In this document: one piece after another, positions 2,251 to 22,220 of the stretch | Position numbering within the stretch: the stretch's first letter is position 1 | How the letters are laid out: the number at the start of each line of letters is the position of its first letter | Virus record (IMG/VR): IMGVR_UViG_3300005836_000021 | Location: 1-53,308 of that record | Source of the DNA: a virus | Length of the DNA: 53,308 bases | Reading direction: 5' to 3' (one strand) | Program-made: the position numbers and the translations under genes | Notes under the pieces: generated by a model | Told to the model about the DNA's origin: nothing | Database searches by the model: none | Seen by the model: only the letters and a program-made list of their open reading frames with translations

Positions 2251-2270
2251 AGGCACGCGCTGTGCATAGG
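2251..2270 (+). promoter_or_regulatory. Sigma54-type -24/-12 promoter motif, copy 2
   Basis: AGGCACGCGCTGTGCATAGG. ATG 2279 is 14 nt after the C of the GC. Confidence 0.5.
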
Positions 2271-2278
2271 TAAAGGCC

Positions 2279-2461
2279 ATGGATACCCCAACGACCTGGA
2301 CCGGCACGATGCACAGCGTGTGCTGCGTGTGCGGTGTGGAGTACGGCACCAAGCCATGCGAGCCCGAACAGGACGGCGCCCTCAGCCACGGCATATGCCC
2401 CAGCCCCCAGTGCCTGGAGGACTTCAAGCATGGGCGCAAGCATACAAAGGAGGCCCAGTGA
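2279..2461 (+). CDS. Small Cys-rich protein (60 aa)
   Basis: MDTPTTWTGTMHSVCCVCGVEYGTKPC...HGICPSPQC. It is the first gene behind motif copy 2. Confidence 0.5.
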   Translation: MDTPTTWTGTMHSVCCVCGVEYGTKPCEPEQDGALSHGICPSPQCLEDFKHGRKHTKEAQ

Positions 2462-3219
2462 ACGACCTGACCCCCGTAGAGCGGCACGGCGACATCTGGC
2501 TGAAGCGCGACGACCTTTTCGAGGTGTCGGGCGTGCGCGGAGGCAAGGTGCGTACCTGTTACGCCTTGGCCCAGGGAGCCAAGGGCCTGGCCACCAGCAG
2601 CCACAGGGCCTCTCCGATGGCTGCATACGTGGCCAACATCGCCCGCGGCCTGGGCATCCCGTGCCGGGTGCACATACCGCAAGGGCCCACGACCCCAGAG
2701 ATGGAGGCGGCCAAAGCCGCGGGTGCCGAAATGGTGCCGTGGCGCGCGGGGTACACCAGCGTCCTGAGCGCTCGAGCACGCGAGGACGCCCTGGCCCGGG
2801 GCTGGACCGAGATACCCTTCGGCATGCAAAGCACCACCGCGGTGGAACAGACCGCTGGCCAGGTGGCCAACCTGCCCGAGGAAGCCACCCGGCTGGTGGT
2901 GTCCGTGGGCAGCGGCCTGTCGATCTCGGGCATATTGCACGGCCTGGACCGCGTGGGCCGTAGCACGTTGCCGGTGCTGGGCGTGGTGGTGCGTGCCTCG
3001 CCCCTCAAGCGCCTGGCCCAGTTTGCGCCCAAGGGCTGGGAGCAGCGGGCCACCCTGGTGCAAAGCGTGCACCCCTACGAGCGGCACGTTGACGCCATGA
3101 TCGACGACGTAGTGCTGGACCCGGTGTACGAAGGCAAGTGCAAGGAATACCTGCTGCCGGGCGACGTGTTTTGGATGATCGGCCTGAGCCGCAGCGTGCT
3201 GGACCGACTGGAGGCTTGA
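2458..3219 (+). CDS. PLP-dependent fold-type II enzyme, ACC deaminase / D-cysteine desulfhydrase-like
   Basis: GTG start in a GTGA overlap. IWLKRDDLFEVSGVRGGKVR resembles the family's KRDDL...GGNKxR PLP-lysine region. A Gly-rich VSVGSGLS loop is also present. Confidence 0.65.
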   Translation: MNDLTPVERHGDIWLKRDDLFEVSGVRGGKVRTCYALAQGAKGLATSSHRASPMAAYVANIARGLGIPCRVHIPQGPTTPEMEAAKAAGAEMVPWRAGYTSVLSARAREDALARGWTEIPFGMQSTTAVEQTAGQVANLPEEATRLVVSVGSGLSISGILHGLDRVGRSTLPVLGVVVRASPLKRLAQFAPKGWEQRATLVQSVHPYERHVDAMIDDVVLDPVYEGKCKEYLLPGDVFWMIGLSRSVLDRLEA

Positions 3220-4862
3220 TGCGAATCCTGTTTGTGATACCGCCGTACCGCACCACCGACGCCCTGGTGGCGCAGTTGTACCCCATGCCACTGGCTGCCA
3301 CCCAGTTGGCTGCGGTGGTGCGGCAGCAGCGGCCCGACTGGGGAATCGAGATCAAGGACTTCCTCCTGCCGGCGGGCAAGAGCACCACGCCAGCCCCGCC
3401 CACGTTTGCGGGCAAGGGGGCGCCTCCGTACATCCATTACGGGATGCCCATGCCCCAGGTGCAGGAGTGGCTGCGCACCAACCTGCCCCGCTTCGACGTG
3501 GTGGGCCTGTGCGCAGGGCAGTGCAACCTGTGGGAAACCTCAGAACTGATCGCTGCTGAGGTACGCGCAGCGGGAAAGCCCCTGGTGGTGGGAGGCCCGT
3601 TTGCCAGCACGGCACCGGAGGAGGCCCGCAGGCGCTTCCAGCCCAACATCATCGTCAAGGGCGAGGGCGAGGGCGTGGTGGTGGCTGCCTTTGAGGCGGC
3701 CCTGGCTGGCAAGAGCCTGGACATGGTGGGCGTTGCGGTACAGGACTTGAACACCCTGCCGCTGCCCGCCTGGGACCTGGCCCCGCCCACCGAGTACCCC
3801 GCCTTCAACGGGCGCAAGCGGGGGGTGCTGTGCATCTCCAGGGGCTGCCCGTGGAACTGCACCTTCTGCGCAGTGTGGACCATGATGTCGCGCAAGCACA
3901 GGCGCCTGCACGCCGAACGGGCCAAGGCCGAGATACTGCACCTGTTCAAGCTGGGGGTGCGGTACTTCTCCTTCCTGGACGACAACCTGTTCATATCACG
4001 GGCAGCCACGGCGGAGCTGCTGGCCATACTGGATGACCTGCGGGCCACCGTACCGGGCTTCAAGAAGTGCCGGTTCTACATGGAGGAGGGCCTGGAGGTG
4101 CGCATGGCGGCCGAGCCCGGCATCGTGCGTGACATCGTGGCGGCAGGCTTCGACAACGTGGCCATCGGCATGGAGACCGTGAACGCTGCCCAGGCACGGG
4201 ACTCCAAGAAGCCATACACCCCGGAGCAAATGGCCAGGGCGCTGGTGGAGTGCGACGCGGCTGGGGTGGTGGTGAAGGCGTTTTACATTGTAGGCTTTCC
4301 GCGGGACACGGTGGCCTCGGTGTGCCGGGACCTGGTGCACTTTGGGAAGCTGGGGCTGGCAGCCAGGCCGAACAACCTGAAGCTTTACCCCGGAACCGAT
4401 GTGGCCACCGACTACCAGAAAGCGGGGTGGATCGGAGCCGACTACGACTGGCGCCTTTCAACCTTCTGGACGCCCACCACCCCCGGGCTGCGCTACGAGC
4501 AGATCAAGAAGCTGAAGACGGTGCTGGGCGGCATAGGCTTTGCCGCGGACACCTTCGGAATCCGGGTGTTTGGCGACACGGGTGCCCAGGCCCTGGCCAA
4601 GCTACGGGCGCACAAGTACCAGGCCGAGGTAACGGTGGGTGCCGACGGTGTGTGGGACGCCTTGACCATTACGGGCAACATGTTCCGCCCCACCCCATAC
4701 CGCCACATGGCGGAGGCACTGGTGCTGGCCAGCGGGGCCAACGGTTGCGAGTCTACGGTGTACGGGCAAGGCGTGGGCACCGTGAGAGTGGTGCGAACGC
4801 TGATGCCGAAAAACGAGGTGCAGGCTGGCATCGTTGCGGCCTTGCAGGAGGTGAAGCCATGA
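3219..4862 (+). CDS. Class B (cobalamin-binding-domain) radical SAM enzyme
   Basis: The N-terminal MRILFVIPPY...PLVVGGPF region looks like a B12-binding Rossmann domain. SRGCPWNCTFC supplies the CxxxCxxC cluster. TGATG junction with the PLP gene. Confidence 0.75.
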   Translation: MRILFVIPPYRTTDALVAQLYPMPLAATQLAAVVRQQRPDWGIEIKDFLLPAGKSTTPAPPTFAGKGAPPYIHYGMPMPQVQEWLRTNLPRFDVVGLCAGQCNLWETSELIAAEVRAAGKPLVVGGPFASTAPEEARRRFQPNIIVKGEGEGVVVAAFEAALAGKSLDMVGVAVQDLNTLPLPAWDLAPPTEYPAFNGRKRGVLCISRGCPWNCTFCAVWTMMSRKHRRLHAERAKAEILHLFKLGVRYFSFLDDNLFISRAATAELLAILDDLRATVPGFKKCRFYMEEGLEVRMAAEPGIVRDIVAAGFDNVAIGMETVNAAQARDSKKPYTPEQMARALVECDAAGVVVKAFYIVGFPRDTVASVCRDLVHFGKLGLAARPNNLKLYPGTDVATDYQKAGWIGADYDWRLSTFWTPTTPGLRYEQIKKLKTVLGGIGFAADTFGIRVFGDTGAQALAKLRAHKYQAEVTVGADGVWDALTITGNMFRPTPYRHMAEALVLASGANGCESTVYGQGVGTVRVVRTLMPKNEVQAGIVAALQEVKP

Positions 4863-5032
4863 AGCCTGAGCTGCCGTTGGAGGTGTTGCTGTTGGCCGGC
4901 GGGTGCGCGGCTGGCGCCGTTGCGGGTGTGGTGGTGATGCTGTGGCCCCAGGTGGCCCTGTTGGCTTTGGGCATCTTCGGTGTGGTGCGCTTGGCCGAGT
5001 GGCTGCAAGACCACAGCGTGGAGCCGTGGTGA
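4859..5032 (+). CDS. Small membrane protein (57 aa)
   Basis: ATGA overlap. The hydrophobic stretch LLLAGGCAAGAVAGVVVMLWPQVALLALGIFGVV suggests membrane insertion. Confidence 0.45.
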   Translation: MKPELPLEVLLLAGGCAAGAVAGVVVMLWPQVALLALGIFGVVRLAEWLQDHSVEPW

Positions 5033-5229
5033 GAGTCAGGCATGGGTGGCTGTTCGTTGGCCACTTGGGGTGGCTATTTCTGACCGCCAGACTGGTGTGG
5101 AGGCTGGACACAGGACATCCACCTGTGGGCTTTGGTGTGCGGGTCTTTCTGTGGGAAGGCGACACCGCTGTGGTGGACCTGCTGCTGGGCCCGCTGGACG
5201 TGCAGTTTGGCTTGCGGCGGCTGGAATGA
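5029..5229 (+). CDS. Hypothetical small protein (66 aa)
   Basis: GTGA overlap upstream and ATGA overlap downstream. There is no other support. Confidence 0.35.
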   Translation: MRVRHGWLFVGHLGWLFLTARLVWRLDTGHPPVGFGVRVFLWEGDTAVVDLLLGPLDVQFGLRRLE

Positions 5230-5669
5230 AGCCTCGCACCAGTGCCTTCGCGAAACGCCTGGTGGCAGCCCTGTGGGCACCGCGCACCCTGGAAGATGCC
5301 TGGGCCACGTGCCAGCGCATGCTGGACGAGCAGCAAAAAGTGGCGCGACGTAAGGGCAAACGGGTCAAGCGTTTGCCAAAACGTGGCGCAGCGGAGCGCG
5401 ATCCTGCAACATCCGAGGGGCGTGCAGGGGATGAGGCCGAGATCGTGCGGCGTCGTGAGCTATACCGGATTGTCGAGGAGGCATCGGTCGCTCGCAAGGA
5501 GCGCGCCGAGACTGCCGAGCGGGAGCTGGCCTCCCTCCGCGACAAGGTCGGCAGCGTACAGCGGCCCATTGCTGCACTTAAGGCAGGAGCAACCCAACCA
5601 ACCACACAGTGCGGGGAGGCATCTGAAATAGGCCACATGGCACGCGGCCTGCATATGGGTGAGGCATGA
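5226..5669 (+). CDS. Hypothetical charged, coiled-coil-like protein (147 aa)
   Basis: ATGA overlap. It is in frame with track ORF 4980..5669. Confidence 0.45.
   Translation: MKPRTSAFAKRLVAALWAPRTLEDAWATCQRMLDEQQKVARRKGKRVKRLPKRGAAERDPATSEGRAGDEAEIVRRRELYRIVEEASVARKERAETAERELASLRDKVGSVQRPIAALKAGATQPTTQCGEASEIGHMARGLHMGEA
5638..5658 (+). promoter_or_regulatory. Sigma54-type -24/-12 promoter motif, copy 3 (best match)
   Basis: TGGCACGCGGCCTGCATATGG. ATG 5666 is 14 nt after the C of the GC. Confidence 0.6.
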
Positions 5670-7438: not shown

Positions 7439-7590
7439 CACAGACAGGCAAGAAGATGCGCCGGCAATTTGGCACCAGGGCAGCGGCAAAGCGTGCGAAG
7501 GCGCGCAAGGCGAGCCGCAAACGCTTCGGCGAGCTGCCCGTGTCGGAGAAGAAGGGCAACGCGGCCCCGTGGCGAAGTGGGGCGCTGTGA
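7435..7590 (+). CDS. Small basic protein (51 aa)
   Basis: GTG start in a GTGA overlap. KKMRRQFGTRAAAKRAKARKASRKRF. Confidence 0.35.
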   Translation: MTQTGKKMRRQFGTRAAAKRAKARKASRKRFGELPVSEKKGNAAPWRSGAL

Positions 7591-7904
7591 AGCCCCCCGT
7601 GAAGAAGATCGACGTGCTCCGCAGGTACATGGTGGAGGGAGAGTACCGGGCCGCCCTGCGCATGGCGGCCAACTTCCCGCGGCTGCCGGCCAAGGAGCGC
7701 AACACCATCCGCACGGCCTGGGCCGCGTGCAGTAACCCCAACCTGTACGACCAGATGGGCAAGGACCCCGCCACGCTGGTGCAGGCGGGGGTGCAGGCCC
7801 TGCGCAGGGTGTACGAGACGCAGGCCATGGCGTACGCCCGCGGGCTGCGTGACGGTGCGGCCCTGGACGCGCTGCTGCACCCGCTGCGGAACCTACACGC
7901 ATGA
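7587..7904 (+). CDS. Hypothetical protein (about 105 aa; alternative GTG start at 7569)
   Basis: GTGA overlap at 7587. The track ORF is 7569..7904. Confidence 0.5.
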   Translation: MKPPVKKIDVLRRYMVEGEYRAALRMAANFPRLPAKERNTIRTAWAACSNPNLYDQMGKDPATLVQAGVQALRRVYETQAMAYARGLRDGAALDALLHPLRNLHA

Positions 7905-8827
7905 ACGAACTCGACCTGTTTGGAAACACAACGGAGGGGGCCCGGGCTGCGGGCCCCCTGGGCAGTCGGTTCATATTCCCTCCCTTCACAGTGCTGCGTG
8001 GCGACAGCGACACGTGGCTGAGCCGAAAGGCTCACTGGCTGGGCATGGGCATCAAGTCCGAGGTCAGCCGCGAAGATGTCAAAACCTACAGCGTGCCGGG
8101 GTACATGCAGAAGTCCGAGGCCACCGTGTCGGTGTTCGACCCCTGCCTGGCCGAGGTGGCGTACAGGTGGTTCTGCCCCACGGGTGGCCAGGTGGTGGAC
8201 CCGTTTGCCGGGGGCAGCGTGCGCGGCATCGTGGCCAGCTTCCTGGGCCTGCCGTACTGGGGGTGTGACCTGCGCGAGGAACAGGTGCAGGCAAACCGGG
8301 AGCAGGCCGCCGAACTATGCACCCCTGGGCTACCCACACCGGTGTGGGTCACGGGCGATGCCCTGGTGGTGCTGGACCAGGCCCCCGAGGCGGACCTGCT
8401 GTTCAGTTGCCCACCCTATGGCGACCTGGAGGTGTACAGCGAAGACGGCGCCGACTTGAGCACCATGCCCCACGAACAGTTCCTGGAGGTGTACGCGGCC
8501 ATCATCAAGAAGGCCGTGGGCAAGCTGCGGGTGGGCGGCATGGCGGCCTGGGTGGTGGGTGAGTTCCGCGACAAGCGCACGGGGGCCTACCGGGAATTCG
8601 TGCCCGACACCGTGGCGGCCTTCACCCTGGCTGGGCTGCAATACTGGAACGAGGTGACCTACATGACCCCCGTGGGCACCCTGGCCATGCGCACCAGCGC
8701 CAAATTCGAGACCAACCGCAAGCTGGGCAAGAACCATCAGAACATGCTAGTCTTTACCAAGGGCAGGCCCATGGTGGCTGGCATACCCGTAAGCACCACC
8801 ACCCCGATGGGTGGCAAGGAGGAATGA
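7901..8827 (+). CDS. DNA (N4/N6 amino) methyltransferase
   Basis: VVDPFAGGSVRG is motif I (FxGxG type) and LLFSCPPYGDLE is motif IV ((D/S)PPY type). ATGA overlap. Confidence 0.75.
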   Translation: MNELDLFGNTTEGARAAGPLGSRFIFPPFTVLRGDSDTWLSRKAHWLGMGIKSEVSREDVKTYSVPGYMQKSEATVSVFDPCLAEVAYRWFCPTGGQVVDPFAGGSVRGIVASFLGLPYWGCDLREEQVQANREQAAELCTPGLPTPVWVTGDALVVLDQAPEADLLFSCPPYGDLEVYSEDGADLSTMPHEQFLEVYAAIIKKAVGKLRVGGMAAWVVGEFRDKRTGAYREFVPDTVAAFTLAGLQYWNEVTYMTPVGTLAMRTSAKFETNRKLGKNHQNMLVFTKGRPMVAGIPVSTTTPMGGKEE

Positions 8828-9297
8828 TGCGAGCTTTGCTGGTGTACCCGAACGGCGCCCAGGCACAGGTGCTGGAAGTGAACCAGACCCCAGGGCAGTT
8901 GCTCACGCCTGTGGCCAACGAGGATTGGTTCTCCATAAACATGGCCATCCCGGTGTATTGCCCGCCCGTGGTGGACGTGTGGAAAAGGGTAAGCACAGGG
9001 GCACCGGACTTCCCTGTGTACGTGTGGGACCGCCGCGAGGGTGGCCCGCGAGAGGGCCCGGCCGAAGGGCTGCCGTTGGTGCGGGGCCTGCAAGCCTACC
9101 TGCGCACTATGCCCGGGGTCAAGACCTTGGGGGTGCAGGTGGACACGAACGGCGACGTGGCCGTGACCCTACAGGGGCCCACCAAGGCCAGCAGGTATCA
9201 CATGAGTCGATACGGGGTGGAACAGGCTCGGTTCGACCCGCTGCGCACGGCCTTGGAATACGCGGCCACACAATTGCGCAGGGCAGGCGACCTGTGA
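8824..9297 (+). CDS. Hypothetical protein (157 aa)
   Basis: Track ORF with an ATGA overlap. Confidence 0.5.
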   Translation: MMRALLVYPNGAQAQVLEVNQTPGQLLTPVANEDWFSINMAIPVYCPPVVDVWKRVSTGAPDFPVYVWDRREGGPREGPAEGLPLVRGLQAYLRTMPGVKTLGVQVDTNGDVAVTLQGPTKASRYHMSRYGVEQARFDPLRTALEYAATQLRRAGDL

Positions 9298-9872
9298 TCG
9301 ACCTGGCCAAGGTGCCCCTGATCGAAAGCGAGAACCAGACACCGAACCCACCCCGCCGTACTGTGGACCTGGTGGTGCTGCACAGCACCGAGGGAAAGGA
9401 ATACCGCGGCAGCGCCCGCAACGTCGCGGACTGGTTCCAAGACGACCGATGCCACGCCAGCGCCCACTATGTGGTCGACCCTGGTGAGGTGGTGCAGTGC
9501 GTGCCCGACGTGGCCGTGGCATGGCACGCCTACGGGTGCAATGCCCGCGGCATCGGGGTGGAGATGTGCGGCCTGGCCGAACAGACCGTGGCACAGTGGG
9601 CAGACCCCGACAGCCTGGCCATCATCGCCCGCACCGCTGACCTGGTGGCAGCAATATGCCTCAAGTGGCAGATACCTGCAACCGGGATGGCCATTTCGCA
9701 AAACACCGGATGGCAGTGGGTGCTTCAAAATCAGAAAGGTAGAGGCCTTCTGACCCACGCACAAGCCAGTGCGGCGTTCCCGGGCCACGGCAACCATTGG
9801 GATCCAGGGCCCAACTTCCCCTGGGCCGCATTCGTCGAAAAGGTGGCCCGCTTGCTGGAGGGAACGCGATGA
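9294..9872 (+). CDS. N-acetylmuramoyl-L-alanine amidase (Amidase_2 / PGRP, T7-lysozyme-like)
   Basis: VVLHSTEG...ASAHYVV...AWHAYGCNARGIGVE...HGNHWDPGPNFPW carries the zinc-ligand pattern. GTG start in a GTGA overlap. Confidence 0.75.
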   Translation: MIDLAKVPLIESENQTPNPPRRTVDLVVLHSTEGKEYRGSARNVADWFQDDRCHASAHYVVDPGEVVQCVPDVAVAWHAYGCNARGIGVEMCGLAEQTVAQWADPDSLAIIARTADLVAAICLKWQIPATGMAISQNTGWQWVLQNQKGRGLLTHAQASAAFPGHGNHWDPGPNFPWAAFVEKVARLLEGTR

Positions 9873-10891: not shown

Positions 10892-11211
10892 TGCGGGCCT
10901 GGGCTGTGATCCGGTACCGGATGGGGCATTGGCTGCGGTGCTTCATTCGACGGATAGTACTGGCCGCAGGTGCGGCGGCCAGTACACGCGGGGAAGCCAA
11001 GCGCAGGCACCTGGCCCGGTTGCTGCGCGCCGAACACGAGGCGCGCTTGCACGAGGTTGGCCGGTGGCGCGAGCACTTGCCCCTGGGGGCGCACGCACGC
11101 CTGCGGTACTACCGGGTCATGCGCCCCAGCGGCCTGCGTCCTGACGGACTGTTACCCAAGGACTTCGAAGATGACCTGGCACCGGTTGTGCATAGGAAAC
11201 AGGCGTGCTGA
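10891..11211 (+). CDS. Hypothetical protein (106 aa)
   Basis: GTG start abutting the upstream TAG stop. Confidence 0.4.
   Translation: MRAWAVIRYRMGHWLRCFIRRIVLAAGAAASTRGEAKRRHLARLLRAEHEARLHEVGRWREHLPLGAHARLRYYRVMRPSGLRPDGLLPKDFEDDLAPVVHRKQAC
11177..11196 (+). promoter_or_regulatory. Sigma54-type -24/-12 promoter motif, copy 4
   Basis: TGGCACCGGTTGTGCATAGG. GTG 11205 is 14 nt after the C of the GC. Confidence 0.5.
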
Positions 11212-11621
11212 TGCCCGCTGCTGTGGTGCTACTGGCCAGCGTACTCGAGGCCCCGCTGTTGGCCCGTGTGGCCAAAAGCGAAGACCCCAGCGCGGGGGCT
11301 GCGGTAATGTGGACGGTGCTGAACCGGGCCCGGGAGTACCGCACCAGCATCTTCGAGGAGGTGACCCGCCCTGGGCAGTATCAGGGCATCTGGACCGTAC
11401 AGGCCAAGGCGTGGTTGGACAACCCCCTGGACGCGGCCCAACTTCAGGCCCTGGAGCGGACCGCGCGGCAGGTGCTGCGGGGTGCGCTCCCAGACCCTAC
11501 AGGCGGCGCCACCCACTTCCACAGGGTGGGCACGGCTGACCCACCGTGGGCACCGGAGGAAGCAAAACGAATACTCGTAGGGAAGCACTGGTTTTACAAG
11601 GAGAAGAAAGATGGCCGATAG
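11205..11621 (+). CDS. SleB-like cell-wall hydrolase (Hydrolase_2 family)
   Basis: VLNRA...RPGQYQG...DPTGGATHFH follows the family pattern NR...PGQF...DPT.GA..F. Confidence 0.65.
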   Translation: MLMPAAVVLLASVLEAPLLARVAKSEDPSAGAAVMWTVLNRAREYRTSIFEEVTRPGQYQGIWTVQAKAWLDNPLDAAQLQALERTARQVLRGALPDPTGGATHFHRVGTADPPWAPEEAKRILVGKHWFYKEKKDGR

Positions 11622-12436: not shown

Positions 12437-12457
12437 TGGCACACACCCTGCATATGG
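12437..12457 (+). promoter_or_regulatory. Sigma54-type -24/-12 promoter motif, copy 5
   Basis: TGGCACACACCCTGCATATGG. ATG 12465 (an 8-codon mini-ORF) is 14 nt after the C of the GC, and the main gene starts at 12488. Confidence 0.55.
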
Positions 12458-12487
12458 GTAAGGCATGACCCAGGCAAAGGAGACCAA

Positions 12488-13155: not shown

Positions 13156-13499
13156 CGGACAAAGTGCTCGAGCGCGACAAGGCGGGCAAGCCCCTGGTGG
13201 TGGCCAAGCGGCCACCCAAGCCCGAGCCCGGGGTGCTGGTGGCGGGGCAACGCTTCCGCCTCCAGCCCGGTGGCCCGGTGTGCACGGTGGTGCGGGTGAC
13301 CCCCGCTGCCGCGTACTACCGCGGGGGCACGGTGCGAGAGGTGCCCGCCTTCGACGGCAAGTGCAGCAAATGCAAGGGCGCCGCAAAGCTGGGCTGCACC
13401 GTGTGCGGTAGCACCGGTGTGGAACACCGCGCGGCCTTCCAGGCCCAAGACAATACGGTGCTGCCGATGAGCCGGCGCGCCTTTGTGTACCCCGAATGA
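13152..13499 (+). CDS. Protein with a DnaJ-type CxxCxGxG zinc-finger pair (115 aa)
   Basis: CSKCKGAAKLGCTVCGSTG. GTG start in a GTGA overlap. It sits directly upstream of the polymerase. Confidence 0.5.
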   Translation: MTDKVLERDKAGKPLVVAKRPPKPEPGVLVAGQRFRLQPGGPVCTVVRVTPAAAYYRGGTVREVPAFDGKCSKCKGAAKLGCTVCGSTGVEHRAAFQAQDNTVLPMSRRAFVYPE

Positions 13500-15487
13500 C
13501 CATGGGCCTGGCCCAGCAGCGGCTCCTCGACAAGGTGCAGGGCTTGGTGGCTGCACCCCAGGTGCCCATAGAGCCCCAGGCCAGCAGGCCGAGGGCCCAG
13601 GTGCAGGCGCCCGTGCCACAGGCCACCGAGCCTCCACCGGGCTGGGCCCCTGACGCCCTGCCCAACCTGGCCAGCGCCCGGCGCCTGGGGTATGACCTCG
13701 AGACCACGGGGATCGAGTGGTGGAGGGGGCACCGCCCTGTGGGCGTGGCCGTGGCCGCCCAGCGCGACGACAACCCCGACCATATCGACGCGTGGTACCT
13801 GCCCACGGGGCACGTGGGGGGCAACCACGACCCGGAGCAGGTGCTGGCCTGGGCGCGCAGCCCCAGCGGCCTGGCTGGTAAGCACCTGTTCGGGCTCAAC
13901 GTGCCGTTCGATGCGCACCACAGCCGGGAATGGGGCTTGGGCCTAGAGGCCCTGGGCTGCACGCTGGGCGACATAGGGCACCGTGCCGCGCTGCTGGACG
14001 ACCACCGGCAGTCGTTCAGCCTGGAAAGCATTGCCCAGGACCTGCTGGGCGAGGGCAAAGTCAAGGGCCTGGACATGCGGCACGGCGCCGGGGTGTACCA
14101 CGCCCACCAGGTCACGGAGTACGCCCGGCAGGACGCGCGCCTGGTGCTGCGGTGCCTGGCCGTGCAAGAGCCCCTGCTGGCCGTCGAGGGCCTGGGCAGG
14201 GTGGTGGCGCTCGAGGACGCGACCATCTGGCCCGTGCTGGAGATGGAGCGCAACGCCATACCCCTGGACCTGGAAAAGCTGGACCGGTGGGTGGCAGACA
14301 TGGCCGCCCTGTCCGAGCAGCTTGCCGCGGGGGTGCGCACGGGGGCAGGCTTCCCGGTCAACCCCGACAGCCCCGAGGACATGGCCCGGCTGTGGGCAAG
14401 CTGCGGGCTCAAGCTACGGCACACGGCCAAAGGCGCGCCCAGCTTCACAGAGGAGATCGTCCTGGAGGCCGCAGCGGCACACCCGCTGATCGCGCAGGCG
14501 TGGCGCGCGGGCAAGGTCAAGGACCTGCACAAGGTGCTGGCAGGGTACCAGCGGAAGGTAAGCCCTGACGGGCGCCTACGGTTCGCACTGAACCAGCTCA
14601 AGGGTGAGAGGGACGAGTACGGTGCCAAAGGCACCGTGTCAGGCAGGTTCAGCGCCAGTGCGGCCAGCCGAGAGGAGGGCGACAACCCACAGCAGGTCCT
14701 CGCCTGGGACAAGTACGCCCGCACCTACCTGCCCATTGTGGGACAAGGGTACTACCCCAGGGAGCTGTTTGTGCCTGGCCCGGGGGCCACCCTGTGCGCC
14801 GCGGATGCGAAGCAGATTGAGTTTCGGATCTTTGCCCACTACAGCAAGTCGGCCAGCCTGCTGGCGGCCTATGCCGCTGACCCGGAGACGGACTTCCACA
14901 ACCAGGTCACGGAAATGGCCCACGCCACGAACAAAACCTTGACCCGGAAGCAGTGCAAGTTCCTAAATTTTGCGCTGATCTTTGCGGCAGGGCGCAAGCG
15001 TGGCGCAGCCATGATGGAGTGCAGCCTGGACGACTTTGACAGCTTCCTGGCCATGTATCGGCAAGCGTTTCCAGAGGCACAGGCCCTGCTGCACCAGGCC
15101 CAGCGCAAGGCCAAGGAGCGCAAGTGGGTCAAGACCGCCCTGGGCCGCCGGGCCCGGTTCAAGCCTGGGTGCATGTGCGGGTGCAGGTTCAAGCGCAAGG
15201 AGAAGGACAACCGCGAGCCGGAGCCCCCGTACCACAAGGCCCTGAACGCTGTGATCCAGGGCACCGCCGCAGACCTGAACAAGCTCAAGTTGTGCCGTTT
15301 ATACGCCATGCGGCACGAGTTGGGCTTCACCATGCGGCTGACCGTACACGACGAGGTCGTTGGCGACCTGCCCGACGCGGAGGCCGCCAGCAGGCTGGCC
15401 GCCGTGCTGGCGGTGCAGGAGGTGGACTTCAAGGTGCCGATACTGTGGGACCTGAAAACGGGGCCCAACTGGGCAGCTTGCAAGTGA
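13496..15487 (+). CDS. Family A DNA polymerase with a 3'-5' exonuclease domain
   Basis: Exo I is YDLETTG. Motif A is DAKQIEFRIFAH, motif B is RKQCKFLNFALIFAAG and motif C is LTVHDEVV. Confidence 0.9.
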   Translation: MTMGLAQQRLLDKVQGLVAAPQVPIEPQASRPRAQVQAPVPQATEPPPGWAPDALPNLASARRLGYDLETTGIEWWRGHRPVGVAVAAQRDDNPDHIDAWYLPTGHVGGNHDPEQVLAWARSPSGLAGKHLFGLNVPFDAHHSREWGLGLEALGCTLGDIGHRAALLDDHRQSFSLESIAQDLLGEGKVKGLDMRHGAGVYHAHQVTEYARQDARLVLRCLAVQEPLLAVEGLGRVVALEDATIWPVLEMERNAIPLDLEKLDRWVADMAALSEQLAAGVRTGAGFPVNPDSPEDMARLWASCGLKLRHTAKGAPSFTEEIVLEAAAAHPLIAQAWRAGKVKDLHKVLAGYQRKVSPDGRLRFALNQLKGERDEYGAKGTVSGRFSASAASREEGDNPQQVLAWDKYARTYLPIVGQGYYPRELFVPGPGATLCAADAKQIEFRIFAHYSKSASLLAAYAADPETDFHNQVTEMAHATNKTLTRKQCKFLNFALIFAAGRKRGAAMMECSLDDFDSFLAMYRQAFPEAQALLHQAQRKAKERKWVKTALGRRARFKPGCMCGCRFKRKEKDNREPEPPYHKALNAVIQGTAADLNKLKLCRLYAMRHELGFTMRLTVHDEVVGDLPDAEAASRLAAVLAVQEVDFKVPILWDLKTGPNWAACK

Positions 15488-17453: not shown

Positions 17454-18535
17454 GCACACCCCTTGCCGAGTTCGATGCTGCGCCCGATGACGTGACCGCG
17501 AAGTTGGCGCGGCTGGAGGACGACCTACGCCTGGCCCGGGCGGCCACCGCGGGAGCGAACAAACGTGCAGCCGCAGCCGAACGCCTGCGCGAACTGGTAT
17601 TCGGGCTTCGCAGCGCCCCGGTGGAAACCCCGGACTGGGCCCTGGAGCGCAGCCAGGCCAGCGGAGCCCCCCACGTGGCAGTGCTGGTCACCAGCGACTT
17701 CCAGTGGGGAGAGGTGATCGACCCCGAAAACATGGATGGCGTGAACCAGTTCAACGTGGCCATCGCTGAGCAGCGGTACCGCACGCTGGTGGAACGCACC
17801 ATCGACATCAGCTTCAAACACCTGCCGGCCAACCGGTACAGCGGCCTGGTGTACCTGCGCCTGGGCGACCAGGTCAGTGGGGACATCCACGCCGACCTCA
17901 GGGAAAGCAACGAGCTGAGCGCCATCCCAGCGGTGCGCAGCCTGGTGGCAGCGGAGACCTGGGGCTTGCAGCAACTGGCCGACGCCTTCGGAAAGGTGCA
18001 CGTGGTCAGCGTGCCGGGCAACCACGGGCGGTACCAGGTCAAACCACCAACGAAGAAGATCAGCGATAACTACGACACCCTCAGCGCCTGGTGGCTGCAA
18101 AGCGAGTTCAAGGGTGACCCCAGGTTCACGTGGCAGACCCCCAACAGCACCGACGCGGTGTTCGAGCTGCACGGGCGCCTATACCTGGCCACCCATGGTG
18201 ACAACATCGGCAGCCGGGGTGGCCAGGGCTTCATTGGGCCCGCGGCCACCATTCTGCGGGGCATGAAGATGACCATGGACGAATACGCCACCCGCGGGGT
18301 GGCCCTTTCCAAGATGTTCGTTGGGCACTTCCATAGCGCCTTCGACCTGGGGCGCGGCTGGTCGAATGGCAGCCTTCCGGGATACAGCGAGTTCGCCCGG
18401 GTCAACCGCATGACCCCCGAGCCACCCATCCAGTGGCTGATCTACTTCCACCCGCGCTATGGGGCCACCAGCCAATGGAAACTTCTGCTGGCGACGGAGC
18501 CCCAGGGCGCCCCAAAGGAGGAACCATTCGCATGA
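17450..18535 (+). CDS. Calcineurin-like metallophosphoesterase (Mre11/SbcD-type fold)
   Basis: The ordered motifs are VLVTSDFQWG, GDQVSGD, VPGNHG, ATHGD and VGHFH. Confidence 0.7.
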   Translation: MSTPLAEFDAAPDDVTAKLARLEDDLRLARAATAGANKRAAAAERLRELVFGLRSAPVETPDWALERSQASGAPHVAVLVTSDFQWGEVIDPENMDGVNQFNVAIAEQRYRTLVERTIDISFKHLPANRYSGLVYLRLGDQVSGDIHADLRESNELSAIPAVRSLVAAETWGLQQLADAFGKVHVVSVPGNHGRYQVKPPTKKISDNYDTLSAWWLQSEFKGDPRFTWQTPNSTDAVFELHGRLYLATHGDNIGSRGGQGFIGPAATILRGMKMTMDEYATRGVALSKMFVGHFHSAFDLGRGWSNGSLPGYSEFARVNRMTPEPPIQWLIYFHPRYGATSQWKLLLATEPQGAPKEEPFA

Positions 18536-18870
18536 AGGTTGCCTATGTTGCCGGGCCGTTCCGGGGGCCCAACGCCTGGGTCATCGAAGAGAACATCCGC
18601 AGGGCCGAGCGCCTGGCCCTGGACCTGTGGGCGGCAGGGTTTGCAGTGATCTGCCCCCACACCAACACCCGGTTCTATCAGGGTGCGCTGCCAGACAACG
18701 TGTGGCTGGACGGCGACCTCGAGATCCTGGCCCGGTGCGACTTGCTGGTGTGCACGCCCGACTGGGAGCGCAGCAGCGGGGCACGAGCTGAGGTGGCCTT
18801 TGCACGCAGCCGAGGTATACCGGTGGTGGCCACGGTAGAAGAGGCGCGTCGGCATAGGGAGGGGCAATGA
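18532..18870 (+). CDS. Nucleoside 2-deoxyribosyltransferase-like protein (DUF4406-like)
   Basis: MKVAYVAGPFRGPN...AVICPHTN...DLLVC is the typical short NDT-like layout. ATGA overlap. Confidence 0.55.
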   Translation: MKVAYVAGPFRGPNAWVIEENIRRAERLALDLWAAGFAVICPHTNTRFYQGALPDNVWLDGDLEILARCDLLVCTPDWERSSGARAEVAFARSRGIPVVATVEEARRHREGQ

Positions 18871-19295
18871 GCGACCTGCCTGCGTGGTGCGTGTCGCACC
18901 AGCGCCACGGGTGTCCCACCTGCACCACGGCCAACCCAAAGGACTTGATTGGGGTCACCAAGACCCCCGCCCTGTCCGTGGTGCCGGCGGCCAGCCTGTT
19001 GTACGAGGCCCAGGCCATGCGGGACGGGGCCCGCAAGTACGGGGCGTACAACTGGCGCGAGCACCCCGTGCGTGCCAGCATCTATATCGACGCCTGTGTG
19101 CGGCACCTGATGGCCTGGTACGACGGTGAGGCCGTGGCCAGCGACAGCGGACAGCCGCACCTTGGCCACGCCAAGGCGTGCCTGGGCATCTTGGCCGATG
19201 CCATCGAGACCGGCAACCTGGTCGACGACCGGCCAACCCCCGGGCCCGCGGCTGCCCTGCTCGAACGGTACAAGGTGCAGGGGCCTGGGAAGTGA
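18867..19295 (+). CDS. dATP/dGTP diphosphohydrolase-like (MazZ N-terminal / DUF5664-like) protein
   Basis: GARKYGAYNWRE...YIDACVRHLMAWYDGE..DSGQPHLGHA resembles that family as I recall it. This needs an HMM check. Confidence 0.45.
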   Translation: MSDLPAWCVSHQRHGCPTCTTANPKDLIGVTKTPALSVVPAASLLYEAQAMRDGARKYGAYNWREHPVRASIYIDACVRHLMAWYDGEAVASDSGQPHLGHAKACLGILADAIETGNLVDDRPTPGPAAALLERYKVQGPGK

Positions 19296-20833
19296 CTTCA
19301 GATCTGTACGCCCACCAGGCCGTGGGCGTACAACGCATCAAGGCACAGCCCGAGTTCTGGATCGGCGACGAGCCAGGGGCAGGCAAAACCAGGCAGGCCA
19401 TCAAGGCTGCTCAGGACCTGTATCTGGCCGGTGCCGTGGACCACGTGGTGGTGGTGGCGCCCGCCCAGGTGTTCCGTACGGTGTGGTACGACCCGGGCCT
19501 GGGCCAGATACGCGAGTACCTTGACGTTCCCTCCATGGTGCGCGAGTACCGCCCCAAGGGCCGCACCTGGGCCACCCCCGACGCAGGGCCCAAGGCACTG
19601 GCCTGGACGGTGGCCAACTACGAACTGGTGCGCAAGCCCGAGCGCATGGCGCCACTGATGCGCGCAGCGGGGCCCAACACCATGCTCATACTGGATGAGA
19701 GCCTGGCTGTGAAGTCGCCCACCAGCCAAACCACCCACGCCATCTATGACCTGCGCCAACGGTGTGGCCGCGTGCTGTTACTGAACGGAACCGAGGGTGG
19801 TGGCGACACCCCGGGCGATGTGTATGCCCAGGCCAAGATCATGAGCCCCAAGATACTGGGGTGTCGCCACTGGTACGAGTTCCGCGCACGGTACGCGGTC
19901 ATGGGAGGGTACCGCCGGCTTCAAAACGTGCGGCAGCCAGACGGCAAGTGGCGCAAGCAGTGGGTACCCATGGAGGTTGAGCGCTGGGTGAACATCGACG
20001 ACCTGTGGCAGCGCATGGCTCCGTACTACCTGCGCAGGACGAAGGCCGAATGCCTGGACCTGCCGGCCAAGATACCGCCCGTGGCTATAGAGGTGCCGCT
20101 GCGCGCCAGCACCTGGTCGCTGTACAAGGCCATGCGTGCAGACAGCATGGCGTACCTGCGCGGGGGTGGGCTGGTAACTGCACAGCAAGCGGGCGTCAGG
20201 GGCCTGCGTTTGGCTCAGTTGTGCAGTGGGTTCCTGGGCGGGGTGCGGGCCCTTGACGACGAGGGCATGCCGTACGGCGAGCCCGATACCAAGGAAGTCG
20301 GCACCGAGAAACAAGAGGCCCTGCTCGAGTGGTTTGCCGGGCGCCTGGTGGCCGACCCCAACGCGAAGCTGCTGCTGTGGTGTCGATTCCGTGGCGAGGC
20401 CGAGCGCACCGCCCGGGCGTTCGCTGAAGCGTTTGAGGGCCTGGCTGTGGGCAAGCTGGTGGGCGGCCAAACCCGCGACGAGCGAGATGCGGCTGTTGCC
20501 CTGCTGGACCCGCGCACGGCGCCCACGGGGCCCGTGGTGCTGGTAGGTACCGAAACAGCGGGGCGGTTCGGGCTCAACCTGTCGGCCGCGTACCTTGTGG
20601 CACACTTGAGCAGCGGGTTCAGCCACATCGACCGCACACAGGCCGACGACAGGCCGCACCGCCCAGGGCAGGTGCACCACATTGAATACTTCGACTTCGT
20701 GGCCACAGGGCCACAGGGCCAGCGCACCCTCGACCACGTGGTGCTGCGCGAGCTGCGCGACAAAGGCAACGTGGCCGCCTGGGGCGCGGCCGAGTGGTTG
20801 CGCGCCTTGCAAGAGGAGCGGGTTCCGTGGTAG
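19292..20833 (+). CDS. SNF2-family (SF2) helicase/translocase
   Basis: GDEPGAGKT is Walker A and MLILDESLAV is the DExx box, followed by a C-terminal helicase domain. GTG start in a GTGA overlap. Confidence 0.8.
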   Translation: MTSDLYAHQAVGVQRIKAQPEFWIGDEPGAGKTRQAIKAAQDLYLAGAVDHVVVVAPAQVFRTVWYDPGLGQIREYLDVPSMVREYRPKGRTWATPDAGPKALAWTVANYELVRKPERMAPLMRAAGPNTMLILDESLAVKSPTSQTTHAIYDLRQRCGRVLLLNGTEGGGDTPGDVYAQAKIMSPKILGCRHWYEFRARYAVMGGYRRLQNVRQPDGKWRKQWVPMEVERWVNIDDLWQRMAPYYLRRTKAECLDLPAKIPPVAIEVPLRASTWSLYKAMRADSMAYLRGGGLVTAQQAGVRGLRLAQLCSGFLGGVRALDDEGMPYGEPDTKEVGTEKQEALLEWFAGRLVADPNAKLLLWCRFRGEAERTARAFAEAFEGLAVGKLVGGQTRDERDAAVALLDPRTAPTGPVVLVGTETAGRFGLNLSAAYLVAHLSSGFSHIDRTQADDRPHRPGQVHHIEYFDFVATGPQGQRTLDHVVLRELRDKGNVAAWGAAEWLRALQEERVPW

Positions 20834-20852: not shown

Positions 20853-21380
20853 ATGGCTGGGAAATACGCAGTTCTAGCGGCACGGATCCCCAAGGCCACG
20901 GCCTGGGGTGGCAGGTTTGCCGACGCCGAGGAGAGCGCACGGCAGGGAAAGATCGAGGAGCACAAGGCCACCATCAAGGACCGGAGGCCCAGCGCCCTGG
21001 CCAAGCTGTATGACAGCCTGCGGGCCAAGCTGGACACGGCCTCGGCCGTCACCAAGGCCCTGGGGGTGCAGGTGGCTGCGGCGGAACAACTGCTGTGGGA
21101 AGCCTACGAGGGCGAAGGGATCGAAAAGCTGGACCTGGCCGGAGGGGGCCTGGTCAGCGTGACCGAGGACATTACCGTGGCTGTGGAGAACAGGACCGCG
21201 TTGAACGCCTGGGCCATGGCCAACGGGCTGGGCAGCATGATGACCCTGTACAGCGCCACCGTGGAGTCGGTCACCAAGGAGCGCCTGCTGGCGGGCGCAC
21301 CGCTGCCGAAAGGGGTCAAGGTGGGTTCGTACAAGAAGACAACGTACCGCAGGGGCAAGGCCCCAGTGGCAACCGAATAA
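20853..21380 (+). CDS. Hypothetical protein (175 aa), possibly Gp157-like
   Basis: AAGGAGG lies upstream. It sits next to an SSB-like gene. The family assignment is only a recollection. Confidence 0.4.
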   Translation: MAGKYAVLAARIPKATAWGGRFADAEESARQGKIEEHKATIKDRRPSALAKLYDSLRAKLDTASAVTKALGVQVAAAEQLLWEAYEGEGIEKLDLAGGGLVSVTEDITVAVENRTALNAWAMANGLGSMMTLYSATVESVTKERLLAGAPLPKGVKVGSYKKTTYRRGKAPVATE

Positions 21381-21390
21381 ACGAGGTAAC

Positions 21391-22152
21391 ATGGCACAAA
21401 ACAAGACGACCGCAGTTGCGAAGGCGCCCACGGGGGCGCTGGCACGGCCCAGCTTCATCAAAGCTGGGGACACCAGGGGCACCGAGAACATCAGCCCCGA
21501 GGATCTCCGCATTCCACGCCTGGCCTTGGCCCAGGCCCTGTCGCCCGAACTGAAGAAGGGCGACCCGAAGTACATCGAGGAGCTGGAGTTCGGCCAGGCG
21601 TTCAACAGCATCACGGGCCAGGTGTACGGCAAGGGCCCCGTGGAGGTGGTGGTGGTGCGCGCCGACAAGGCGCGCTGGATCGAGTTCGACCCCAAGAACA
21701 GGGGCGTGATCCTGGACCGCGACGTGCCGGCGGGCGACAAGCGCACCGAGTGGGGCAGTGGCGAAGACGGCAAGCCCGCGGCCACCAAGTTCCTGGAGTT
21801 CGTGGCGCTGTTGCTGCCCACCCTGGAGCCGATCGCGCTCAGCTTCAAGGGCAGCGGCATCAAGGCGGGCCAGTTGGTGAGCACCTTGATCAAGCTGAAG
21901 GCTGCCCAGTTGGGTGGCGCCCCCAGCTTTGCGTTCAAGCTCAGCTTGACCACGGGGCTGGAGAAGAACGCGAAGGGCGAGTACGCGGTGTTCGTGCCGC
22001 GCCTGACCGACACCGTGGGCGAGGAAACCTACGCAGCGGCCAGCGCCTTCTATGACAGCATCAAGGACCAGGCCCTGGCCCCTGACGAAACCGCGGCTGG
22101 CGAGCCCGAGTCCCACCCGGCTGACAGCGACAAGGACGACGTCCCCTTCTAG
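21391..22152 (+). CDS. Putative ssDNA-binding / recombination-associated protein with an acidic SSB-type tail
   Basis: The C-terminus ...DSDKDDVPF resembles the SSB tip DDDIPF. Confidence 0.45.
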   Translation: MAQNKTTAVAKAPTGALARPSFIKAGDTRGTENISPEDLRIPRLALAQALSPELKKGDPKYIEELEFGQAFNSITGQVYGKGPVEVVVVRADKARWIEFDPKNRGVILDRDVPAGDKRTEWGSGEDGKPAATKFLEFVALLLPTLEPIALSFKGSGIKAGQLVSTLIKLKAAQLGGAPSFAFKLSLTTGLEKNAKGEYAVFVPRLTDTVGEETYAAASAFYDSIKDQALAPDETAAGEPESHPADSDKDDVPF

Positions 22153-22171
22153 CACGGCGCACATGCCGCAG

Positions 22172-22198
22172 GGGGTGCAGGCGTAGGGCCTGCACCCC
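22172..22198 (+). terminator. GC-rich hairpin (ggggtgcaggc / gcctgcacccc, 5-nt loop)
   Basis: Read directly, 20 nt after the stop at 22152. No U-tract follows. Confidence 0.45.
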
Positions 22199-22220
22199 AC
22201 CACCTACACCAAGGAGGCGC

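Follow-up and report, generated by a model that had tools for sequence, protein, structure and literature searches.

[quoted passage not shown] This question is raised by positions 2279–5032 of the window, that is, of the whole stretch of DNA analyzed, a complete viral genome of 53,308 bp with direct terminal repeats. An earlier sequence-only reading had left three roles open, namely small-molecule synthesis, peptide modification, and nucleotide or DNA modification; our analysis favors DNA modification, makes the small-molecule role less attractive, and leads us to reject a RiPP-like peptide role.

The four genes described in that reading as chained by overlaps were all recovered on the plus strand (2279–2461, 2458–3219, 3219–4862, and 4859–5032), and their third-position GC (0.85–0.88) is that expected for real genes in a genome of 66% GC. 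Successive genes overlap by GTGA (2458–2461), TGATG (3217–3221), and ATGA (4859–4862), and a GGAGG-type Shine-Dalgarno sequence precedes each of the three junctions, which indicates translational coupling along the four-gene chain. Each of the quoted motifs was found as well: the first protein (60 aa) contains CCVCG...C...C..C, the PLP enzyme KRDDL...GGK, and the rSAM enzyme CPWNCTFC. Ahead of the operon stands a putative sigma54-like −24/−12 promoter-type motif (2251–2267, plus strand), AGGCAC-N5-GTGCAT, of the TGGCAC-N5-TGCAT type; this motif, already pointed out before the locus, also occurs 14 nt upstream of four other starts (1139, 5666, 11205, and 12465). A second putative copy (5638–5654, plus strand) heads a tightly packed row of overlapping or abutting genes (5666 to ~11200), which includes the methylase gene discussed below, and the PLP/rSAM and methylase operons are thus headed by the same promoter-type motif. 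The PLP/rSAM locus is surrounded by small accessory genes and lies near the genome end. No match to the locus was obtained by blastn among 50,697 phage records.

The second gene (2458–3219, plus strand) encodes a PLP-dependent fold-type II protein of 253 aa, a predicted tailoring enzyme, which matches PF00291 (PALP; 4e-14) and is modeled by AF2 with a pLDDT of 95.4. The nearest solved folds found by Foldseek are D-Cys desulfhydrase (4d8t) and an ACC-deaminase homologue (1j0a), with E-values of ~1e-12 and TM scores of 0.71–0.75, and 4d8t was also retrieved when PDB sequences were searched with a profile (5.6e-09), in agreement with the ACC-deaminase-like, fold-type II assignment made initially. 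The protein remains below the curated TIGR01275 cut-off (25.6 bits vs. 289) and is short of the ~330 aa of full-length members of the ACC deaminase/D-cysteine desulfhydrase branch. The Schiff-base lysine of the GGK motif (Lys30) is invariant in 37 homologs, in which the glycine-rich phosphate loop G151-S152-G153 is nearly invariant. The enzyme also matches phrog_3650 (2.3e-31), the PHROG family to which ViI gp226 belongs (2.5e-241), and hhalign aligned it with gp226 at a probability of 97.8% (E 1e-12, 26% identity over 234 columns); a further match is to the M6 gp52-type phrog_7093 (4.5e-14). In the thymidine hypermodification of phages ViI and M6, ViI gp226 and M6 gp52 are PLP decarboxylases and M6 gp53 isomerizes as an rSAM enzyme (Lee et al. 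2021, PMC8989533); there, gp226 was shown to decarboxylate serine borne on thymine in DNA. Its place in phrog_3650 makes the PLP enzyme a relative of gp226, a decarboxylase of DNA-borne amino acids, although it is much smaller than gp226 (424 aa).

The third gene (3219–4862, plus strand) encodes a class-B-like rSAM protein of 547 aa that matches PF04055 (5.8e-16), a predicted radical tailoring enzyme working together with the methylase-like protein described below. It consists of an N-terminal Rossmann domain of putative B12 type, a CX3CX2C TIM barrel, and a family-specific C-terminal domain (AF2 pLDDT 93.9). The cysteines C210, C214, and C217 of the CX3CX2C motif are invariant in 38 sequences; C102 is the only other conserved cysteine, and neither SPASM/twitch auxiliary-cluster cysteines nor a peptide-recognition Pfam domain could be identified. 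The B12-binding domain PF02310 scores 27.5 bits, just under the 32.1-bit cut-off, which is exceeded in some homologs (33.8 bits in homolog P0019); the domain searches agree with the initial call of a B12-domain rSAM enzyme. The best Foldseek neighbor is AprD4, and TsrM, MgmA, CysS, OxsB, and TokK are also found (E 1e-19 to 5e-13, TM 0.5–0.7), at 12–21% identity to the class B structural neighbors; a search of solved structures with the family profile retrieved AprD4, MgmA, TokK, TsrM, and CysS as well. AprD4 possesses a B12-like domain but does not need cobalamin, and its top rank counts against the reading proposed below; cobalamin use by the present enzyme is putative. The three-part architecture is shared with the class B enzymes TsrM, TokK, CysS, MgmA, and OxsB and with the dehydratase AprD4, from all of which the enzyme differs by its family-specific C-terminal domain and by the fusion or linkage of its family to a DNA methylase; to our knowledge, no class B enzyme has been reported in such an association. 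It falls outside the named NCBIfam subfamilies (HpnR, PhpK, BchE, MgmA, AprD4, and others), the best being TIGR04013 (61 bits vs. 251), with weak matches to ApyD and rSAM_ocin_1. A search of 185,579 species-representative prokaryote genomes with its C-terminal domain turned up no relative, so that the rSAM family looks phage-only. In 50,697 phage records, tblastn identified only a 26%-identical protein of Streptomyces phage SF3; no cultivated phage carrying this rSAM enzyme was found. A single metagenome scan with the rSAM alignment, which used generic class-B motifs, yielded distant relatives only (22–33% identity), and a search with a family-specific DNA pattern returned three already known contigs and nothing further.

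The sequence-only reading missed a third partner. The conserved partner of both enzymes is an amino-type DNA methyltransferase-like protein of 308 aa (7901–8827, plus strand), encoded outside these coordinates, in the next operon, ~3 kb downstream of the PLP/rSAM pair and not adjacent to it. This protein is the sole copy in the genome and has no ParB domain; it matches phrog_12517 (2.7e-83), phrog_498 (1.8e-60), and, slightly above the 26.7-bit cut-off, PF01555 (28.4 bits). The SAM-binding motif I (FxGxG) is present as DPFAGGS and motif IV is SCPPY. The ParB-fused and stand-alone N6/N4 DNA methyltransferases of phages (PF01555; phrog_498, phrog_12517) likewise have motif I and a motif IV of the xPPY type; the family differs from these in having CPPY rather than D/N/SPPY as motif IV (CPPY in 74 of 81 motif-IV xPPY matches, SPPY being the minority), in its insertion hot spot, and in being split or fused to an rSAM domain. 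N-terminal ParB domains are frequent in the family, and fusions to family A DNA polymerase occur. Standing alone is the usual situation, since 141 of the 150 nearest representatives are devoid of a PLP domain, and most cultivated phages with the methylase appear to lack the PLP enzyme in a tblastn search that missed the divergent PLP enzyme of the Erythrobacter phages. The hot spot is a loop that harbors PLP, GNAT, CxxCxxCC, or unknown domains, and one family member has a 2OG-oxygenase-like tail; GNAT inserts and this tail belong to enzyme classes used to tailor amino-bearing adducts and were counted in favor of hypermodification. The partner types are scattered across the methylase tree (a single FastTree run, with no support analysis).

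As for linkage, the two enzymes are rarely found together (2/6 rSAM genomes and 0/80 PLP loci), whereas each of them is linked to the methylase, which accompanies the PLP homolog in 70 of 80 viral loci and is present in all six rSAM-bearing viral genomes, adjacent to the rSAM gene in four. Their pairing, which had been deemed unusual, is thus indeed rare here, but it was already known in phage M6, where a PLP and an rSAM enzyme are also encoded side by side (PMC8989533). These rSAM counts refer to the six viral genomes; 61 close homologs of the rSAM enzyme were identified. The only genes shared among the six loci are those for rSAM, methylase, ParB, and PLP. In ~44 viral loci, the PLP domain is inserted in frame within the methylase, between motifs I/II and motif IV, in the order methylase N-half, PLP, methylase C-half, as one open frame. 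Among cultivated phages, Pam4 (gp70) and Erythrobacter ZS04 (gp7) show this arrangement, the cultivated carriers of the methylase-PLP form being Pam4, the Erythrobacter phages R6L and ZS04, and the mycobacteriophages Vincenzo and AlanGrant. Twelve metagenomic rSAM-methylase fusions show three topologies (rSAM + methylase C-half, methylase-rSAM, and rSAM-methylase), and in locus L004 the genes are separate and run ParB-methylase N-half, PLP, rSAM, methylase C-half. Two loci (L003 and L006) and all twelve fusions combine rSAM and methylase without PLP, which implies that the two additions need not share one adduct. A selfish cassette merely disrupting the methylase gene was ruled out, as the in-frame fusions keep both methylase halves and the motifs are conserved. 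By a reading of fold topology, the PLP insertion site, after the helix following strand 2, would face away from the SAM pocket, and tethering therefore fits better than direct PLP-SAM chemistry. A literature search found no paper describing a methylase-PLP or methylase-rSAM architecture; in the Erythrobacter phage R6L paper, the 830-aa protein is annotated simply as a methylase. Judging from these gene arrangements, the conserved unit is the PLP enzyme and the rSAM enzyme only, as putative add-on modules of the methylase-like gene.

Most likely, the trio puts on phage DNA bases a previously undescribed mark larger than a methyl group. We think it probable that the PLP and rSAM proteins are the tailoring enzymes of a post-replicative base modification started by the 7901–8827 protein, the catalytic residues of all three being intact (Lys30 of the PLP enzyme, the three cysteines of CX3CX2C, and, in the methylase, motif I and the CPPY form of motif IV). 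We infer the substrate, the transferred group, and the order of the steps as follows. The methylase-like enzyme would bind SAM, flip out a base, and load the exocyclic amine of that base, N6 in adenine or N4 in cytosine; as our leading guess, it would transfer the 3-amino-3-carboxypropyl end of SAM, instead of or besides methyl. The PLP enzyme would then strip the carboxylate, leaving an aminopropyl-type cationic side chain, and the B12-type rSAM enzyme may abstract a hydrogen, either of the side chain or of an N-methyl group, before alkylation or rearrangement. The resulting bulky mark might shield phage DNA against host nucleases. There are precedents for such chemistry: enzymes with a methyltransferase-type fold are able to pass on the amino-acid portion of SAM, and further enzymes can tailor the side chain at its amine, its carboxylate, or its C-H bonds. 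In tRNA, the SAM aminocarboxypropyl transferases are TYW2, followed by TYW4/TYW5 (wybutosine), and Tsr3. The likeness to TYW2 and Tsr3 is one of mechanism, by analogy alone; aminocarboxypropyl transfer by the methylase family is a hypothesis, its substrate would be DNA, and no sequence relationship is claimed.

Nor would the route be that of ViI and M6. No dUMP hydroxymethylase (no PF00303 match), 5-hmdU DNA kinase, or aGPT-Pplase amino-acid transferase was found in the complete genome, and the canonical 5-hmdU thymidine hypermodification was rejected for this reason; for the last two the negative is weak, as it comes from single-sequence searches that gave no homolog of ViI gp247 or gp243. 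The conserved partner, an amino-methyltransferase-like protein, would be a different initiating enzyme, and the class-B-like rSAM enzyme with its B12-type domain differs from M6 gp53, which is spore-photoproduct-lyase-like. The Z-genome pathway was rejected as well, a MazZ-like gene being present and PurZ absent.

More tentatively, the phage-only rSAM family could be the first cobalamin-type rSAM family working on DNA, where it might alter a SAM-derived side chain or N-methyl group on adenine or cytosine; aminocarboxypropyl, aminopropyl after decarboxylation by the PLP enzyme, and N-methyl are possible candidates for that group. It may possibly dock on, or be fused to, the base-flipping methyltransferase-like enzyme, and the hypermodified purines or cytosines that result could conceivably form a new class, whose synthesis bypasses the 5-hmdU kinase/transferase route. 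The characterized amino-acid-derived hypermodifications of phage DNA that we reviewed start from a 5-hydroxymethyl-pyrimidine and use kinase/transferase chemistry. The locus points to a second entry route, based on an amino-methyltransferase-type platform with swappable tailoring domains (PLP, GNAT, rSAM, and others). If this is true, it would add new bases to the catalog of natural DNA chemistry, explain the widespread and unannotated domain insertion in phage "methylases," and provide class B rSAM enzymology with its first DNA substrate, with a bearing on restriction evasion, on the sequencing behavior of modified phage DNA, and on enzymatic DNA labeling tools. The methylase-PLP part is open to direct testing, as cultivated phages with this form exist.

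Among the alternatives, plain methylation fares best, although we regard it as unlikely. The core would make N6-methyladenine or N4-methylcytosine, after which the B12-rSAM enzyme would methylate the N-methyl carbon, giving an ethyl or longer group, or a ring carbon, and the PLP enzyme would act off DNA, on SAM itself (for instance by decarboxylating or degrading it) or on one of its by-products. CysS, which extends an O-methyl group by methylation, is a model for ethyl formation by an rSAM enzyme, and the iterative C-methylases CysS and TokK are among the structural neighbors. Moreover, most family members are stand-alone proteins annotated as methylases, and rSAM with methylase but without PLP is the commonest rSAM arrangement. 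Indeed, since neither the methylase core nor its CPPY motif differs between members with and without partners, and the partners are scattered on the tree, the core may simply methylate. The PLP enzyme would then be left without an obvious substrate, and its only characterized relatives use amino acids already on DNA; its location inside a DNA enzyme in ~44 loci is difficult to account for if it works on free metabolites, and an amine-bearing adduct would likewise be needed by the GNAT insert found at that site.

A metabolite-level role, in anti-defense or auxiliary metabolism, appears improbable. The PLP and rSAM enzymes would use up SAM, convert it, or produce a small molecule, and linkage to the methylase would reflect common SAM use or an anti-restriction role rather than a common DNA substrate. 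Phages do possess SAM-degrading anti-restriction enzymes, all three proteins bind SAM or an amino acid, and the locus sits amid small accessory genes at the genome end. However, in-frame insertion and three independent fusion topologies speak for a single physical assembly working on DNA, many of these proteins begin with a ParB DNA-binding domain, and the PLP enzyme is homologous to DNA-acting decarboxylases. It is very doubtful that the core and its additions act on another polymer (tRNA, rRNA, or protein). Proteins and RNA are also among the substrates of amino-methyltransferase folds with xPPY motifs, and CPPY departs from the canonical motif IV of DNA enzymes, but the PF01555 and PHROG "DNA methyltransferase" matches, the frequent N-terminal ParB domains, the fusions to family A DNA polymerase, and a C-terminal rSAM domain absent from the prokaryote genomes searched all argue for DNA. 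Finally, a RiPP-like system, with the Cys-rich protein as precursor or substrate of both enzymes and the membrane peptide serving export or immunity, deserves hardly any credence and was rejected in spite of the coupling of the four genes and of the RiPP C-methylases among class B enzymes (the weak ApyD and rSAM_ocin_1 matches), given that no precursor peptide is conserved beside the rSAM gene, both small proteins are missing from all 85 related loci, the rSAM enzyme has a single further conserved cysteine and no SPASM or auxiliary cluster, and each of the two enzymes occurs elsewhere as a fusion with a DNA methylase.

The grouping of the four genes into one unit, as first proposed, does not hold in related loci. 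The zinc-ribbon-like Cys-rich protein of 60 aa (CxxC ... Cx4C; 2279–2461, plus strand, GC3 0.85), encoded by the first gene, belongs to no Pfam, NCBIfam, or PHROG family, has no homolog across the 85 loci even at E < 10, and matches only unnamed small viral proteins in the ESM Atlas. The hydrophobic (membrane) peptide of 57 aa that closes the operon (4859–5032, plus strand, GC3 0.88) has only a subthreshold Pfam match and no homolog across the same loci. Both are therefore not conserved members of the module, and under the DNA-modification reading they would be unrelated small genes riding in the operon. A possible accessory is the 111-aa protein encoded at 7569–7904 (plus strand), which overlaps the methylase start; it has no Pfam family, and its homologs adjoin the methylase/PLP gene in 13 of the 80 viral loci.

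The viral genome is complete and uncultivated (53,308 bp, 66% GC, with direct terminal repeats), and a codon-position GC map delineates 84 genes across it. Four of these, all on the + strand and described by the sequence-only reading as chained by overlaps, encode a Cys-rich protein (2279-2461; 60 aa), a PLP enzyme (2458-3219; 253 aa), a radical SAM enzyme (rSAM, 3219-4862; 547 aa), and a membrane peptide (4859-5032; 57 aa). This organization is borne out by their third-position GC (0.85-0.88), by junctions that overlap as GTGA, TGATG, and ATGA, and by a Shine-Dalgarno sequence proper to each gene. The sigma54-like motif that the same reading had placed ahead of the operon was also recovered (TGGCAC-N5-TGCATA type; 2251-2267, + strand) and is repeated before four other starts; the five copies (1095-1139, 2251-2279, 5638-5666, 11177-11205, and 12437-12465) each lie 14 nt before a start codon, one standing ahead of the PLP/rSAM operon and another ahead of an operon containing a methylase gene. 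About 630 bp with a weak coding signal (5033-5665) separate these two operons; a possible 148-aa Lys/Arg/Glu-rich ORF found there (5223-5669) has a third-position GC below that of its neighbors and overruns the next promoter-type motif.

Both enzymatic domains initially recognized from the sequence are supported by Pfam. In the PLP enzyme, the fold-type II PLP domain (4e-14) conserves the Schiff-base lysine K30 (GGK) and the GSG phosphate loop, and the confident structural model (pLDDT 95.4) is nearest to D-cysteine desulfhydrase and to the ACC-deaminase homologue 1j0a (TM 0.71-0.75). Its top family match is phrog_3650 (2.3e-31), of which gp226 of Salmonella phage ViI is a member (2.5e-241); the profile of the window PLP family, which has more than 300 metagenomic relatives, aligns end to end with gp226 (hhalign probability 97.8%, E 1e-12). 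Both gp226 and gp52 of phage M6 decarboxylate amino acids borne on thymine in DNA, and in M6 the decarboxylase gp52 adjoins a radical SAM isomerase (Lee et al. 2021, PMC8989533).

In the rSAM, the radical SAM domain is clear (5.8e-16), but the cobalamin domain previously assigned to it is only partly upheld, the B12-binding match scoring 27.5 bits against a 32.1-bit threshold that some homologs exceed. The three cysteines of the CX3CX2C motif (Cys210, Cys214, and Cys217) are invariant; because only one other cysteine is conserved, the enzyme has no auxiliary cluster. No NCBIfam class-B subfamily came close to its cut-off with the rSAM, and the solved folds closest to its confident AlphaFold2 model (pLDDT 93.9) are AprD4, TsrM, MgmA, CysS, OxsB, and TokK, with 12-21% identity. 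Given this motif, these subfamily scores, the model, and its fold neighbors, we term the enzyme class-B-like and predict that it uses cobalamin. Close homologs numbered 61 in metagenomes, and no relative of the C-terminal domain was found among 185,579 species-representative prokaryote genomes.

The product of the methylase gene (7901-8827), an amino-type DNA methyltransferase-like protein, matches phrog_12517 (2.7e-83), phrog_498 "DNA methyltransferase" (1.8e-60), and, above cut-off, PF01555. It is intact, with motif I DPFAGGS and motif IV SCPPY, is the sole copy in the genome, and lies 3 kb downstream of the PLP/rSAM operon in the following row of densely arranged genes, itself headed by the same promoter-type motif. 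A methylase homolog is present in 70 of the 80 viral loci carrying a PLP homolog. In about 44 PLP loci, a single open frame encodes the methylase N-half (motifs I-II), the PLP domain, and the methylase C-half (motif IV onward). Four further loci have the PLP domain fused C-terminal to a whole methylase, and about 19 encode the two as adjoining but separate genes. The inserted arrangement occurs in gp70 of the cultivated phage Pam4 (ParB, methylase N-half, PLP, methylase C-half) and in the 812-aa gp7 of Erythrobacter phage ZS04, where the PLP domain lies within the methylase; the methylase match of vB_EliS-R6L is likewise split, and in mycobacteriophages AlanGrant and Vincenzo a ParB-methylase adjoins the PLP gene.

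The gene context of the rSAM, drawn from six viral loci including the window, points to the same partner. All five other contigs carry the methylase. It lies immediately upstream of the rSAM in L002 and L003 and immediately downstream in L006; in L005 it is found 3.8 kb downstream. L004 has four separate genes, in the order ParB-methylase N-half, PLP, rSAM, methylase C-half. Apart from rSAM, methylase, ParB, and PLP, no gene family within 5 kb is common to the six loci. Moreover, 12 predicted proteins fuse rSAM and methylase in three topologies: rSAM with the C-half (eight, plus a ninth with an intein in the C-half), whole methylase followed by rSAM (two), and rSAM followed by whole methylase (one). 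Taken together, insertion of domains in frame, fusion in three independent topologies, and co-occurrence that is nearly universal strongly indicate that the methylase-like enzyme acts in physical partnership with the PLP enzyme and likewise with the rSAM.

Position 175/176 of the methylase family profile is an insertion hot spot. Besides PLP, a set of related proteins (P0266, P0267, P0280, P0286, P0290, and P0303) carries there a GNAT acetyltransferase (P0286), a CxxCxxCC domain (PF03692), and inserts of ~200 and ~390 aa of no recognized type; P0290 bears a 2OG-oxygenase-like (Asp/Asn-hydroxylase-like) C-terminal tail. Among the family members P0201, P0323, P0262, P0224, and P0337, some are fused to a family A DNA polymerase and several contain LAGLIDADG inteins inside the methylase. 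In the window, a 111-aa protein of no family (7569-7904) overlaps the methylase start; among 80 viral loci, 13 have a homolog beside the methylase/PLP gene, and the protein may be an accessory or a regulator.

We propose, as the best-supported and a reasonably probable reading, a three-component DNA base hypermodification module, which would be a form of post-replicative hypermodification, already known in phage DNA. Among described systems, the closest is the toolkit with which phages ViI and M6 hypermodify thymidine; it shares with the window the PLP family and the concept of a PLP and rSAM tailoring pair, but differs in its initiating enzyme, its probable target base, and its rSAM class. 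The 5-hmdU pathway genes, which elsewhere provide the substrate of gp226-type enzymes, were not found in the complete genome, and our literature search found no paper describing a methylase-PLP or methylase-rSAM architecture.

In the proposed module, the methylase-like enzyme would lay down the first adduct on a DNA base. Because a PLP decarboxylase requires a free alpha-amino acid, and the only amino acid known to be bound by the core is the methionine end of SAM, we infer a SAM-derived handle: an aminocarboxypropyl adduct would be converted to aminopropyl and then undergo radical tailoring, a specific order that is tentative and, on balance, rather doubtful. Transfer of 3-amino-3-carboxypropyl by methyltransferase-type folds has precedent in tRNA modification. 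Such a handle would supply a substrate for every add-on (PLP, GNAT insert, 2OG-oxygenase-like tail, and rSAM), and in the window, with its single methylase and both add-ons, aminocarboxypropyl would be the only simple scheme with a substrate for both. However, most methylase family members have no fused partner, the CPPY motif is unchanged whatever the partner, partner types are dispersed over the methylase tree (built without support analysis), and the rSAM is mostly found without the PLP enzyme. These observations count against a SAM-derived handle and make it possible that the core enzyme simply methylates, in which case the rSAM may lengthen the N-methyl group, as CysS and TokK do on methyl groups.

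Peptide modification, among the roles first considered, is disfavored: the Cys-rich 60-aa protein would be the RiPP substrate of the operon enzymes, but a search of 85 related loci, with the threshold relaxed to E<10, gave no homolog of it or of the membrane peptide, and the rSAM lacks an auxiliary cluster. A role of the PLP enzyme and rSAM on a free metabolite or in SAM depletion is hard to square with the domain insertions and fusions. Modification of a polymer other than DNA is conceivable but made less likely by the ParB DNA-binding domains on many methylase-family proteins and the joining of some to DNA polymerase.

Elsewhere in the genome, a DUF4406 protein (nucleoside deoxyribosyltransferase-like) adjoins a protein with a MazZ-like dATP/dGTP diphosphohydrolase N-domain (18532-19295); PurZ (adenylosuccinate synthetase family) is absent from the genome, and a standard Z-genome set is thus ruled out. 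A family A polymerase (13496-15487) and a SNF2 helicase (19292-20833) are also encoded, and in 20853-23078 the replication module shows links to cyanophage-type phages and marine phages through proteins resembling gp33 and gp34 of Pam3 and through an NrS-1-type primase-polymerase helix-bundle domain. Two cell-wall hydrolases (Amidase_2, Hydrolase_2; 9294-9872 and 11223-11621) lie among the + strand non-structural genes, and a SASA-type carbohydrate esterase (52254-53000) is located close to the right end.
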